Sequence record: OP172792
DNA length: 64,000 nt
Reading direction: 5' to 3' (one strand)
Source of the DNA: Escherichia phage ECO340P2
Below the pieces are notes generated by a model. The model saw nothing but the letters and a program-made list of their open reading frames with translations. It was not told the origin of the DNA and did no database searches. Shown here one piece after another: positions 8,340 to 41,127 of this stretch. Made by a program: the position numbers and the translations under genes. Numbering within the stretch: the first letter of the stretch is position 1; each line of letters starts with the position of its first letter.

Positions 8340-8469
8340 TAAATACTAATATTTAAATTCTTTTTAAAATAGCCAGTGTTCACACCACTAACTATGAGTT
8401 ATCGGTAAAGTGGTTACCGCCACTTGCCGAAGATTTACTCTGCTAAAGTAAGCTATATTAAAAAGAACT

Positions 8470-8555
8470 TGGCGGTAGATGTAGGACTCGAACCTACACG
8501 CCGTTTCCGACTACAGTTTAGCAAACTGTCGTGGCTACCATTTCACCAATCTACC
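8470..8555 (-). tRNA. tRNA-Ser (anticodon GCT), type II
   Basis: acceptor GGTAGAT/ATCTACC, G73, anticodon arm ACAGT-TTGCTAA-ACTGT, long variable arm, T-loop TTCGAGT. Confidence 0.85.
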
Positions 8556-8560
8556 TAATC

Positions 8561-8651
8561 TGGCGGAAGGAGGGAGAGTCGAACTCCCAAGGCTCTTTCA
8601 AGCTCGGCGGTTTTCAAGACCGTTTTCGTCGCCACGTCGATTTGCCCTTCC
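8561..8651 (-). tRNA. tRNA-Ser (anticodon TGA), type II
   Basis: acceptor GGAAGGG/TCCTTCC, G73, anticodon loop CTTGAAA, long variable arm, T-arm GGGAG/TTCGACT/CTCCC. Confidence 0.8.
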
Positions 8652-8660
8652 ATACTTATA

Positions 8661-8689
8661 ATCTAACATAAAATAATGTTAGTTGTCAA
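8661..8689 (-). promoter_or_regulatory. sigma70-like promoter (TTGACA-17-TTAGAT) upstream of the right tRNA sub-cluster
   Basis: reverse complement CTATTGACAA motif about 30 nt upstream of tRNA-Ser 5' end. Confidence 0.3.
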
Positions 8690-8884
8690 TAGTTTTTTAA
8701 AACATTTTACCATGAATGGTGACTCCACCAACCCCGTTCTCCACGAACGGTGCTCTTCGAGCATTTATGTCTTCTAATATAACCGTGGCCTTTGTTTATA
8801 ATGTCTGACATACTTGCCTCATTCTCTGCCACCATGATCAGTAGTGGGTTCAAATCACTTGAGCTAATTCATGTTAAAATGTTC

Positions 8885-8959
8885 TGGTGTCTTTACAAGG
8901 AATCGAACCTTGACTAAGAGTTTAGAAGACTCCTGTGCTATCCATTACACCATAAAGAC
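8885..8959 (-). tRNA. tRNA-Arg (anticodon TCT)
   Basis: acceptor GTCTTTA/TAAAGAC, anticodon arm GGAGT-CTTCTAA-ACTCT, T-arm CAAGG/TTCGATT/CCTTG, CCA. Confidence 0.85.
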
Positions 8960-8961
8960 GT

Positions 8962-9036
8962 TGGTGGCCCTGGCTGGTTTCGATCCAGCTACCTATCGGT
9001 TATGAGCCGACAGCTCTCCCATTGAGCTACAGGGCC
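8962..9036 (-). tRNA. tRNA-Met (anticodon CAT; second copy, possibly a different CAT isoacceptor)
   Basis: acceptor GGCCCTG/CAGGGCC, anticodon loop CTCATAA, T-arm GCTGG/ATCGAAA/CCAGC, CCA. Confidence 0.8.
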
Positions 9037-37459: not shown

Positions 37460-37767
37460 TGTATAAGATTACAATTATTCAAAGTGTAGGTAATATCCGT
37501 AAAGAAGTTATCTTAGAAACAGAAGATGTTAATCTTGTTCGTGAGATTGTTCTTAAGGAAGATAACCTGCAAGCTGTAGAATCAGATGCACCGAATCTTA
37601 TGGTGGATCAAGAATATTCTGAACTTCGTCGTATTTTTGAAGAGATTCAGAAGAAAGAAACACAACCTACCATAAAACCTTTTGGCCCTTATGATCCGAG
37701 CAATCCTAGCAGTCCTTGGATCATGAGAAATACGGAACCCTATACACCTTTTGAAATTACTTGTTGA
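37459..37767 (+). CDS. hypothetical protein
   Basis: 102 aa ORF. Confidence 0.5.
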   Translation: MYKITIIQSVGNIRKEVILETEDVNLVREIVLKEDNLQAVESDAPNLMVDQEYSELRRIFEEIQKKETQPTIKPFGPYDPSNPSSPWIMRNTEPYTPFEITC

Positions 37768-37774
37768 GGTGATT

Positions 37775-38356
37775 ATGGCAGAACTGTTCTATACGGGAGT
37801 TGGAAGTAGAGACATATCCGAAGAAGAGTGGGCTTTGATGGTAGGTATAGGGAAATGGCTTTCAAACCTTGGGTTTAAATTAAGGTCTGGGAAGGCAGAG
37901 GGTAGTGATTCTGCTTTTGAAACAGGTGTCCAAGAGTCTGAAAATCCTACTAACAAGGAGATTTATGTTCCTTGGGAAAATTTCAAAGGTAATCAGATTC
38001 CAGGGGATGTTATTGTTCTTGCAAAACCAGATACAATGAACTATGCTATCTCTGTGCAGTGGATCAAAGATGTTCACCCAGCCTATGAAAAGCTTAAGCA
38101 GGGTGCCAGAAAATTGCACCAACGTAATGTGCATCAAGTGTTAGGTAGAGATTTGGAGAATCCTGCTCCATCATGTTTCTTGTTGGCTTGTGCTAATACT
38201 GATAAACATGGAGATGCAAAAGGTGGAACAGCTACGGCTTGGAAGATAGCTAAAGCCAATAATGTTCCTTGTTTAAACATTCGTGGGAAAACAAAACAAG
38301 AGATTTACGATTTTCTACGACCTTTGGTAATGAGGGCAATAACAAGTGATTCCTAA
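37775..38356 (+). CDS. Rossmann-fold protein, DprA/SLOG-like
   Basis: YTGVGSRD ... LRSGKAEGSDSAFETG resembles DprA/LOG-type nucleotide-binding loops; ATG after GAGGTGA. Confidence 0.4.
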   Translation: MAELFYTGVGSRDISEEEWALMVGIGKWLSNLGFKLRSGKAEGSDSAFETGVQESENPTNKEIYVPWENFKGNQIPGDVIVLAKPDTMNYAISVQWIKDVHPAYEKLKQGARKLHQRNVHQVLGRDLENPAPSCFLLACANTDKHGDAKGGTATAWKIAKANNVPCLNIRGKTKQEIYDFLRPLVMRAITSDS

Positions 38357-38858: not shown

Positions 38859-39127
38859 CAAGTTTTGAAAGTAACTTCGTTACCGCTTGGGAAGCTTGGG
38901 ATGAAATGGGTGTTGGTGAACTTTATTTTTACAATGTAACACTACGTCCAGAGTATGCTTATCTGGTACCAGAAGGAACAGTTCAAATTGGCATGTATCT
39001 GTCTTCTCAAGACGGTGTTGTTCAATTTGAGTTTTATTCAAACACAACGGACAACGAATTTACATATCGTGCATTTCATGTCAACATGTCTTTAGGAGAG
39101 GAGAAATTTTATGACGACCAAGTTTAA
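38837..39127 (+). CDS. hypothetical protein
   Basis: 96 aa ORF. Confidence 0.5.
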   Translation: MAEFGSVTSFESNFVTAWEAWDEMGVGELYFYNVTLRPEYAYLVPEGTVQIGMYLSSQDGVVQFEFYSNTTDNEFTYRAFHVNMSLGEEKFYDDQV

Positions 39128-39308
39128 AACAGTAGAAGAAGCCGTAAAAGCAGCTTATGAGGCTTTAGCGGAAGCAGAGCAGTTAGCAGATGAGACTGGT
39201 AAAGGTTTCCGTTTCTCCCCTGAATATGGGATGGGTGGCTATTATGATCCAGAAGATGAAAATGAGAATACTGGAACAAATTGGCATCCATCTTCTTTAA
39301 GTTGTTAA
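39111..39308 (+). CDS. small protein, WxSS..C C-terminal family member 1
   Basis: 65 aa; ends GTNWHPSSLSC. Confidence 0.5.
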   Translation: MTTKFKTVEEAVKAAYEALAEAEQLADETGKGFRFSPEYGMGGYYDPEDENENTGTNWHPSSLSC

Positions 39309-39319
39309 TAGGAGGTAAA

Positions 39320-39595
39320 GTGGGAATCGAAGATATCAAAGGTTATAAGGCGCATACTGACGATAAGATTGGCAAGGTTAACGCTATTAAAGATGCAGAA
39401 GAGCGTTTAGGTTTAATCTTCAAAGCTTTAGAGGAAGAGTATTGTGAAGCATATCATGGGTCTTTTGACGGCACAGAAAAAGAATTAGATTTTGCATACG
39501 AACGTATTGATCAAATCCGTTGTGCTATTAAACATTTAAAAGAAGCTAGTATGTGGGCTTGTCGTTCAGTTTTCCAACCAGAGGAGAAATATTAA
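39320..39595 (+). CDS. hypothetical protein, GTG start
   Basis: GTG 4 nt after AGGAGG; ORF-track TTG start at 39281 has no RBS. Confidence 0.4.
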   Translation: MGIEDIKGYKAHTDDKIGKVNAIKDAEERLGLIFKALEEEYCEAYHGSFDGTEKELDFAYERIDQIRCAIKHLKEASMWACRSVFQPEEKY

Positions 39596-39813
39596 TGAGT
39601 GATCGTAATGTTGAAGAATTAACTGAAAAAGCCCAAGCTATTATGGCTTTAGTTGACGAACTTACAAAAGAAGCTGAAGATGCTGGTTTTGGTCTTAGTT
39701 TAGAAGATAATGCAATCTGTTTTGAAGATTGGCAATCCTCTTCTTGTTATGGTGAAGGTGACGATGGTTTCGTTGTTAATTCTCAAGGCGTTTGGCACAG
39801 TAGTAGCTGTTAA
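39595..39813 (+). CDS. small protein, WxSS..C C-terminal family member 2
   Basis: ATG after GAGGAGA; ends GVWHSSSC. Confidence 0.5.
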   Translation: MSDRNVEELTEKAQAIMALVDELTKEAEDAGFGLSLEDNAICFEDWQSSSCYGEGDDGFVVNSQGVWHSSSC

Positions 39814-39822
39814 GGAGAGATT

Positions 39823-40095
39823 GTGGAGTCTGAAGGCGAACTGCTGATAAAAAAGAAAGTTAAAGAGATGGAACAAGCACAAAGAAAGTTTCGTAAAGAG
39901 ATTGAAGAACTTTGTGAACAATTTCAGGAACAAGCTTGGATTGGTGACTATGATAATGGAGAAACTTATTACCCTACCGGAACACCAGCCGCAGACCACT
40001 ATATTGACTTTATTTGTGAAGATTATGGTGTAGAGTTAGATGAAAATGGTTTAACCACAAGAGGTGTTTGGGTCTCTTCTTCATCAATGTGTTAG
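39823..40095 (+). CDS. small protein, WxSS..C C-terminal family member 3, GTG start
   Basis: ends GVWVSSSSMC; RBS AAGGAGAG. Confidence 0.5.
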   Translation: MESEGELLIKKKVKEMEQAQRKFRKEIEELCEQFQEQAWIGDYDNGETYYPTGTPAADHYIDFICEDYGVELDENGLTTRGVWVSSSSMC

Positions 40096-40104
40096 TAAAT
40101 AATA

Positions 40105-40126
40105 ACCCGCTTCGGCGGGTTTTTTA
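40105..40126 (+). terminator. rho-independent terminator
   Basis: ACCCGC-TTCG-GCGGGT hairpin followed by TTTTTTA. Confidence 0.6.
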
Positions 40127-40155
40127 TTGACAGAGATAGGGAAGCTTGATAAACT
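40127..40155 (+). promoter_or_regulatory. sigma70-like promoter (TTGACA-17-TAAACT)
   Basis: abuts terminator T-tract (TTTTTATTGACA), same arrangement as at 21717. Confidence 0.4.
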
Positions 40156-40185: not shown

Positions 40186-41127
40186 ATGGTGTTAATTGGT
40201 AGCCGTGCATTACAAATTCATGCTATGGATATGGGAAAAGACTTGTATCGCCCTTGTGTAGATTTAGATTACCTGTGTACAGAACAAGAGTGGGAAGAAT
40301 TATCAAAAATGTTCTCTCAAGAGGAGTTTGTTGAACTTGTAGAACGTAAAGGGAACAAGGGCCATGTCAAAATGATAGCTGGTGCACATTTGGAATACGA
40401 TATTGCTTCTCAAGGAGATAGCACAGAAGCTTTGATTAGTTATTGTGAAGAGTCTGATGATATTCGTCGAACTTACGCTGGACATGTTGTTGCTCCTTTA
40501 GATGTGCTCTACCTTCTTAAAATGAGTCATCGTTTTAAAAAGGATAGTCCTCACTTCTTTAAAACTATGAAAGATATTCATTTCATGCGATCACTGGGCG
40601 CAAAGATCCCAGAAAATCTTAAGAGTATTTATGAGTTGCGTGAGAAAGAAACATACACTTACTCTCATCCAAACTTAAACGTAAAAAGTAAAGACTTCTT
40701 TAAAGGTGATGAGGTTCCGTATGTTTATGATCATGATTCTATCCACGAAGCCATTGCGGTAATGGATGCTCCAGCATATAAATCTTATATGAAAGATGGA
40801 AGTGAAGTTATGACCAGCAAAGAAAAGTTTTTTGCTCAACCAAAACATGTGCGCCTGTTAGGTGTTTATGAAGAAGCGTGTGTTTTGGCTTTGGAACGTT
40901 CACAAATTCCTTTCGGTGAAGAGATCGGAGGTCCAACACCTAAGCAAAGTTTTATGATGGCTTTATCTAAAGTTTGCACATCCATTACTAGTGGTTGGTT
41001 TAGGGAATATGCCTGGGAGAACTTTTACGTTGTTACTAAACTATATGAAAACATGGGTGAAAACGACTATGTTGAACGTTTTAAAGCTAATCGCCATGTA
41101 GTAAAGCCTTTTGAAGGAGGTTATTAA
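40186..41127 (+). CDS. hypothetical protein
   Basis: 313 aa ORF, RBS AGAGGAG. Confidence 0.55.
   Translation: MVLIGSRALQIHAMDMGKDLYRPCVDLDYLCTEQEWEELSKMFSQEEFVELVERKGNKGHVKMIAGAHLEYDIASQGDSTEALISYCEESDDIRRTYAGHVVAPLDVLYLLKMSHRFKKDSPHFFKTMKDIHFMRSLGAKIPENLKSIYELREKETYTYSHPNLNVKSKDFFKGDEVPYVYDHDSIHEAIAVMDAPAYKSYMKDGSEVMTSKEKFFAQPKHVRLLGVYEEACVLALERSQIPFGEEIGGPTPKQSFMMALSKVCTSITSGWFREYAWENFYVVTKLYENMGENDYVERFKANRHVVKPFEGGY

Follow-up and report, generated by a model that had tools for sequence, protein, structure and literature searches.

Why should three small phage proteins, barely alike and encoded almost side by side, all end in a tryptophan, a run of serines and a cysteine, and what might read such an ending? 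The question is raised by a 64,000-nucleotide stretch of Escherichia phage ECO340P2 (record OP172792; hereafter the window), in which an earlier note on the DNA had proposed that the shared C-terminal tail could be a processing, lipidation or metal-binding tag. The three genes belong to a large family of small acidic proteins whose tail is under selection, and the family is encoded almost always just upstream of one conserved gene, which in the window (40186–41127) specifies a predicted nucleotidyltransferase. We tentatively propose that the two form a module in which the tail faces the enzyme.

Three paralogues and the tail of their family

The three open reading frames (ORFs) lie on the + strand, each behind a strong Shine-Dalgarno sequence, and carry the endings WHPSSLSC, WHSSSC and WVSSSSMC that had been reported for them. 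Paralogue 1 (39111–39308, 65 residues, isoelectric point (pI) 4.3) contains the canonical YGMGG loop and ends GTNWHPSSLSC, the tail W58-HPSSLS-C65 occupying nucleotides 39282–39305. Paralogue 2 (39595–39813, 72 residues, pI 4.05), the ATG of which overlaps the stop codon of the preceding gene, ends GVWHSSSC (W67-HSSS-C72, nucleotides 39793–39810) and holds a second, internal motif that the earlier note had missed (W46-QSSS-C51, nucleotides 39730–39747). Paralogue 3 (39823–40095, 90 residues, GTG start, pI 4.3) ends GVWVSSSSMC (W83-VSSSSM-C90, nucleotides 40069–40092). The Trp-to-Cys offsets of the three are 7, 5 and 7, respectively. Among the 1072 six-frame, stop-to-stop ORFs of at least 30 residues in the window, the C-terminal pattern W.{0,2}SS.{0,3}C is matched three times, each time by one of the small ORFs; with each ORF product shuffled 2000 times, 0.05 matches are expected per window against the three adjacent matches observed, which rules out a chance occurrence of the tail.

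Pairwise BLASTP similarity among the paralogues is of marginal significance (E 0.013 to 2), and scanning their sequences against Pfam, NCBIfam and PADLOC returned nothing meaningful. Because all three match phrog_899 despite this marginal similarity (E 1.2e-12, 9.5e-6 and 1e-13 for paralogues 1, 2 and 3), in alignments that run full-length and include the last profile column, they are, as judged by profile comparison, genuine, old and diverged paralogues. Paralogue 2 represents a "double-motif" subfamily, which forms a separate BLAST cluster and occurs once per locus in 24 of 80 related loci.

PHROG 899 carries no annotation of function, is without a Pfam or NCBIfam model, and has an entry that records neither the tail motif nor a linked enzyme. 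Word-indexed searches with seed alignments gave 126 relatives, and an exhaustive HMMER search of a 108-sequence profile against 1.84 billion representatives gave 962 clusters at E ≤ 1e-3, of which 390 also reach E ≤ 1e-10, with almost every one aligned through its final residue; tblastn with a single paralogue type (paralogue 3) found relatives in 444 of 50,697 phage records, many T4-like (Straboviridae) genera included. Family members are acidic (median pI 4.5, net charge −8), and 60–120 residues long, and their consensus runs from an amphipathic helix (..AExIADExG..) through the element F-x-F...YGMGGTY(Y)P and a linker, acidic and variable, to the C-terminal G-W-x-[S/A/P]-S-S-x-x-C-COOH. The extra length of long members consists only of coiled-coil or mis-called N-terminal extensions.

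The earlier note had named alignment across homologues as the check on its motif and absence from related phages as what would speak against it; no other feature of the family proves to be as conserved as the motif, and no such absence from relatives was seen. In two member sets, 118 of 126 and 128 of 132 proteins end in Cys (~95%), and the Trp-to-Cys spacing is 7 in 109 of the 126 and 131 of the 132, with the double-motif subfamily at 5. Nearly invariant, too, are the Ser at −4 (110/125 members) and the Ser or Thr at −3 (117/125). The W-SS-C tail is thus, on the strength of its terminal Cys, fixed Trp offset and near-invariant Ser across the aligned family, a C-terminal signature under selection, not a product of coincidence. 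The tail Cys is the only one that half of the members have. Many members also have extra W-x-SS(-C) pseudo-repeats in their acidic linkers, so that in these alignments the motif behaves as linear recognition motifs do.

The tail is kept even in paralogues whose bodies have diverged beyond detection by the family hidden Markov model (HMM). Upstream of the enzyme gene of Otagovirus PHB09, for example, four ORFs of 104–152 residues end DWDSSSMYC, DWDSSRC, VWNASSQSC and KWAASNHNC, and only one of them has a canonical body. As side observations on this Pseudomonas phage, the region 1327–3317 of locus L104 holds four or five of the longer paralogues (104–170 residues) before the enzyme gene, one of which (2134–2646) has lost its terminal Cys, and two adjacent ones probably correspond to a fused 276-residue protein in phage KIL5 (BFVD A0A142IFN2). 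Tk.1 of phage T4 (locus L004, 2347–2550, − strand) matches the family HMM weakly (17.5 bits) and has no W-SS-C tail; it could be a remnant without the tail, or else the match could be noise.

An AlphaFold2 model of the 65-residue paralogue 1, built with the family alignment (predicted local distance difference test (pLDDT) 91), has a helix (residues 8–29) packed against a three-stranded sheet (strands 33–35, 43–45 and 58–60). Trp58 opens the last predicted strand, and the final five residues are lower in confidence. The strand at Trp58 suggests that the Trp belongs to the fold and that the Ser/Cys end is its exposed terminus: in the model, the tail Trp has a structural place in a folded domain instead of belonging to a free appendage. 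A PDB sequence search with the family profile gave no match, Foldseek against BFVD returned uncharacterised family members only, and the small proteins showed no structural similarity to known sponges or to DNA mimics.

A MenT-like enzyme gene and its linkage to the family

The gene downstream of the array (40186–41127, + strand) encodes a 313-residue DUF7277 + DUF7275 protein, predicted to be a Pol β-fold nucleotidyltransferase of MenT/AbiEii-like architecture. Pfam at E ≤ 1 assigns only DUF7275 and DUF7277 to it, with no AbiEii/DUF1814, and it has no PADLOC match and no PDB match by sequence or profile. Its AlphaFold model (pLDDT 89) shows the Pol β nucleotidyltransferase fold with a helical second lobe; the closest solved structures, in the order listed, are MenT1 (9.1), MenT3/TglT (8.4), MenT4 (7.3), ANT(2'') (7.0) and LnuA (6.9), with further Pol β nucleotidyltransferases ranking below LnuA. 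The partner is thus, in its predicted structure, a Pol β nucleotidyltransferase nearest in fold to the MenT tRNA-nucleotidyltransferase toxins.

Across 37 homologues Gly5, Ser6, Asp26, Asp28, Glu70 and Lys112 are invariant and Asp130 is nearly so (at least 90%). The catalytic residues of MenT are [S/T]xDxD, Lys and Asp (PMC10435456), and D26-x-D28, Lys112 and Asp130 of the phage enzyme agree with them in order and spacing, position 24 being variable (PMC10435456). A survey of jumbo phages lists the nucleotidyltransferases RlaP, CCA-adding enzyme and Thg1, and the DUF7277-DUF7275 enzyme is not among them (PMC7824862). Literature searches on phage-encoded MenT-like enzymes and on phage AMPylation or UMPylation found no account of the small family or the module, nor was any description of the family, DUF7275, DUF7277 or the module found in the searchable literature.

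Within the window, the enzyme gene begins at 40186, on the strand of the small genes, the last of which stops at 40095. An array likewise precedes an enzyme homologue in a Mosigvirus (3 paralogues), a Kanagawavirus (5), a jumbo phage of Xanthomonas (2) and three metagenomic phage contigs that are unrelated. In a set of 80 viral contigs retrieved with the enzyme profile, the family HMM finds 166 ORFs in 68 loci, all 166 co-directional with the enzyme gene and 162 of them upstream of it, at a median distance of 409 nucleotides. The tail pattern is present in 217 of 1655 same-strand ORFs within 4 kb upstream of the enzyme versus 6 of 9395 elsewhere, and is positive in 74 of the 80 loci, with 1–6 copies each; most HMM-negative loci hold divergent tail-bearing ORFs. 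Overall, the small family lies co-directionally upstream of the enzyme in 74–78 of the 80 loci, and in nine loci the gap between small gene and enzyme is only 8–20 nucleotides. No fusion of the two was found among 120 enzyme homologues.

The linkage also holds in the opposite direction of search. The enzyme is present in 7/7 loci anchored on the small gene, and a degenerate DNA pattern for YGMGGTYYP identified 13 loci, 10 with enough flanking sequence, in all 10 of which the enzyme gene is directly downstream; together, the two small-gene-anchored sets have the enzyme in 17/17 informative loci. Counted by host genus, records with the small gene and records with the enzyme are close in number, at 252/259 for Escherichia, 34/35 for Klebsiella, 34/36 for Enterobacter and 18/18 for Shigella, and linked loci span Phapecoctavirus, T4-like phages, Otagovirus and jumbo phages. 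T4 itself has neither an enzyme homologue nor a tail-bearing ORF. Shorter, DUF7275-only homologues (250–284 residues) occur in actinophages and KVP40-like phages (Streptomyces phage Circinus, Gordonia phage Culver, Vibrio phage V09) with no tail-bearing neighbour, and the link to the small proteins is therefore specific to the full-length DUF7277 + DUF7275 clade.

Transcription signals and genomic setting

Between the array and the enzyme gene of the window, a strong intrinsic-terminator-like hairpin (40104–40121, + strand; a 7 bp stem with 5 GC pairs, then a T-run) closes the small-gene unit and directly precedes a sigma-70-like promoter (40127–40155, + strand; TTGACA, a 17-nucleotide spacer, TAAACT and an extended −10 TG), which is a consensus match only. 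Because of this arrangement the nucleotidyltransferase gene appears to be an early transcription unit of its own, and the coupling of the two parts would be genomic and not strictly operonic. The terminator and promoter here, and the intervening genes seen in other loci, point to looser coupling than in classical toxin-antitoxin operons or operons for ribosomally synthesized and post-translationally modified peptides (RiPPs). In T4-like phages, one gene between array and enzyme encodes a conserved protein of 83–90 residues (..RFEDAHC..; locus L001, 4777–5028; locus L002, 5448–5720), for which Pfam gives no match and which the ECO340P2 window lacks.

The gene at 39320–39595 (+ strand), which the earlier note had set apart as unrelated to the tail proteins, is indeed no member of their family. 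Its product belongs to the Acb2/Tad1-hairpin family (PF24729; E 1.5e-16, 60.8 bits versus a cut-off of 27), is 65% identical to T4 Vs.4 (E 9e-36), and is thus an orthologue of an anti-CBASS (the antiphage signalling system based on cyclic oligonucleotides) cyclic-oligonucleotide sponge, inserted within the array. The neighbours of the module in other phages include Gad2, Tad3, Rnl1/Pnk, RlaP and RNA-ligase genes. This setting and the sigma-70-type promoter suggest an early role in host takeover or counter-defence.

The DNA comes from a Phapecoctavirus, one of the rV5/phAPEC8-like E. coli myoviruses with genomes of ~150 kb, and its array region is ~98% identical to many such genomes. Across the array region, E. 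coli phapecoctaviruses share 98% identity with GenBank MG065650.1, so that the host label of this record, "Campylobacter phage B15", looks doubtful. About 750 nucleotides upstream of the array lies a gene for a DprA-like DNA recombination-mediator protein (37751–38356, + strand; phrog_768, E 2e-62). The window also contains a cluster of 10 tRNA genes (7114–9036, − strand; Met twice, Ile, Pro, Gln, Gly, Thr, Asn, Ser and Arg); the module adjoins the tRNA cluster in T4-like phages and is 30 kb from it in the window.

Readings of the tail and likeness to known systems

Because the family is almost always found just upstream of one conserved nucleotidyltransferase, we consider the tail to be probably the docking or modification site of that enzyme, and our leading reading, held at somewhat less than even confidence, is that the tail is an enzyme-facing motif read by the transferase, either as a Ser/Cys acceptor or as a pseudo-substrate. 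One conserved enzyme beside several diverging tail proteins, with a motif that is duplicated and is kept when the body changes, fits an enzyme and its recognition motif better than it fits a structural tail or a one-to-one inhibitor. The small family and the MenT/AbiEii-like enzyme would then be a two-part module, with 1 to 6 fast-diverging tail genes before one conserved enzyme gene. The Trp would anchor the last strand onto the helix, leaving the Ser-Ser...Cys-COOH end to protrude and be recognised by the transferase. A nucleotide would then be joined to a Ser hydroxyl or to the Cys thiol, or the tail would act as a pseudo-substrate that fills the acceptor site. The acidic body may mimic nucleic acid, for example a tRNA 3' end, and the differing bodies may give the paralogues differing partners or fates.

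Several observations weigh against this proposal. The closest structural relatives of the enzyme, the MenT proteins, have tRNAs and not proteins as substrates. About 4% of family members have one residue beyond the Cys, and a free Cys carboxylate is therefore not essential. In the window a terminator and a separate promoter stand between array and enzyme gene, and elsewhere unrelated genes do so in some loci, with gaps of up to 1.6 kb. The family HMM is partly biased to tail-bearing ORFs, although the synteny result is independent of this bias. Finally, what is established comprises the paralogy, a tail conserved throughout the family, the predicted fold, the fold and catalytic-type residues of the enzyme and the genetic linkage, and every step beyond that linkage is our inference.

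The main rival is an antitoxin-like role, in which the small proteins neutralise or time a MenT-like transferase of potential toxicity through their N-terminal helix, in the way that MenA1, a short antitoxin, acts on MenT1, and the tail is mainly structural, with the Trp as an anchor and the rest as a C-terminal cap. A small gene upstream of a MenT-like enzyme mirrors the menA1-menT1 order, the gap is very short in the nine loci described above, and the Trp lies within the predicted sheet; yet one conserved enzyme would hardly need 1–6 diverged inhibitors, and the tail is stricter than the helix and survives a change of body, which is unexpected of a purely structural cap. With, in addition, a terminator and promoter that part the genes in the window and no sequence or fold match found to any solved antitoxin, we regard this role as a minority possibility. 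Unlikely in our view is that the small proteins are independent anti-defence effectors, that is, acidic decoys, sponges or nucleic-acid mimics like Acb2, the tail being an inter-subunit metal or thiol site or a binder of a host protein, and the enzyme being nearby through a shared accessory region. The embedding of Acb2 in the array, the presence of Gad2, Tad3 and RNA-repair genes nearby in other phages, the strong acidity, and the fast divergence and copy-number variation typical of arms-race genes would all be explained. Linkage to one enzyme across unrelated phage families, found in both search directions, nevertheless goes far beyond a shared variable region; a metal site would require oligomers, since one Cys is all that half of the members possess; and the comparison with known sponges and DNA mimics gave no structural likeness.

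What had been said of the tail as a tag stands in part: it is a selected C-terminal signature, but lipidation, processing and metal binding by a single chain lack support. Should it be a tag, its likeliest reader is the nucleotidyltransferase encoded just downstream. The Ser(−3/−4)...Cys(0) spacing does resemble that of precursors of lanthionine or S-aminovinyl-cysteine (AviCys) rings, as in epidermin-type peptides, and several paralogous "precursors" before one enzyme resemble a RiPP cluster. Nonetheless, it is very improbable that the tail signals proteolytic processing, lipidation or maturation of the RiPP type, the last forming lanthionine or AviCys from Ser and the C-terminal Cys. The whole 65-residue chain is predicted to be a compact domain and not a leader and core peptide; the neighbourhoods listed hold no lanthipeptide (LanB/M/KC/L, LanD), YcaO, radical-SAM, protease or prenyl/acyl-transferase gene beside the family; the best NCBIfam match, SflA, which is also the sole match to a lanthipeptide model, is noise (E 0.11, 12.4 bits versus a cut-off of 25); and the members with a residue after the Cys speak against such a signal. 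A classical RiPP precursor was rejected on the grounds of the folded domain and the lack of maturation enzymes in those neighbourhoods. CaaX lipidation was rejected as well, as it needs a Cys at −4 followed by aaX, whereas here the Cys is last in ~95% of members and the hosts are bacteria, and an intramolecular metal site is unlikely given the single-Cys members.

A bolder form of the enzyme-facing reading, quite unlikely as we see it, is that the module is an unrecognised phage protein-modification system, in which the transferase builds a protein-linked (oligo)nucleotide on a Ser or Cys of the tail, or in which an O-nucleotidyl-Ser leaving group eliminates to dehydroalanine that is caught by the terminal Cys to give a lanthionine-like C-terminal ring. 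A protein-linked nucleotide might then act as a decoy towards host immunity that senses nucleotides, or serve as a primer, and the 1–6 paralogues might be alternative carriers. The small family, with its near-thousand clusters, is found in E. coli, Klebsiella, Acinetobacter and Pseudomonas phages that are therapeutic candidates, and through the linkage an anonymous motif becomes a two-protein hypothesis open to direct test. If the proposal holds, DUF7275 and DUF7277 would gain a function, and either nucleotidylylation of a protein tail or a phage-borne MenT-like toxin/regulator pair would join the mechanisms of host takeover and counter-defence.

Comparison with known systems helps to place the module. 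Acb2/T4 Vs.4 is likewise a small acidic early phage protein, and its presence in the same array suggests a shared counter-defence neighbourhood. It nevertheless belongs to a different family and fold (the PF24729 helical hairpin) without the tail motif, is not linked to the transferase in the other phages examined, and is present in T4 without the tail family or the enzyme. MntA-HepT (MNT-HEPN, a type VII toxin-antitoxin system) and GlnD/GlnE offer a precedent, their Pol β nucleotidyltransferases nucleotidylylating a hydroxyl side chain of a small partner protein that is encoded adjacently or acts with them. In these systems the modified residue is a Tyr on HEPN toxins or on PII or glutamine synthetase, whereas the candidate acceptor in the phage proteins is a tail Ser or Cys; no HEPN or PII-like partner was found in the phage module, nor any sequence similarity to MntA-HepT or GlnD/GlnE. 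MenAT of Mycobacterium tuberculosis (MenT1/3/4 with MenA; DUF1814/AbiEii superfamily), close to the phage enzyme in fold, has no sequence-level relation to it. In contrast to MenT, the phage enzyme has a much larger and highly conserved C-terminal domain (DUF7275), and in contrast to MenAT, the module is phage-borne, has 1–6 upstream paralogues, and shares among these a C-terminal motif that is absent from MenA proteins. We rate the module as a Pol β transferase with a small cognate partner.

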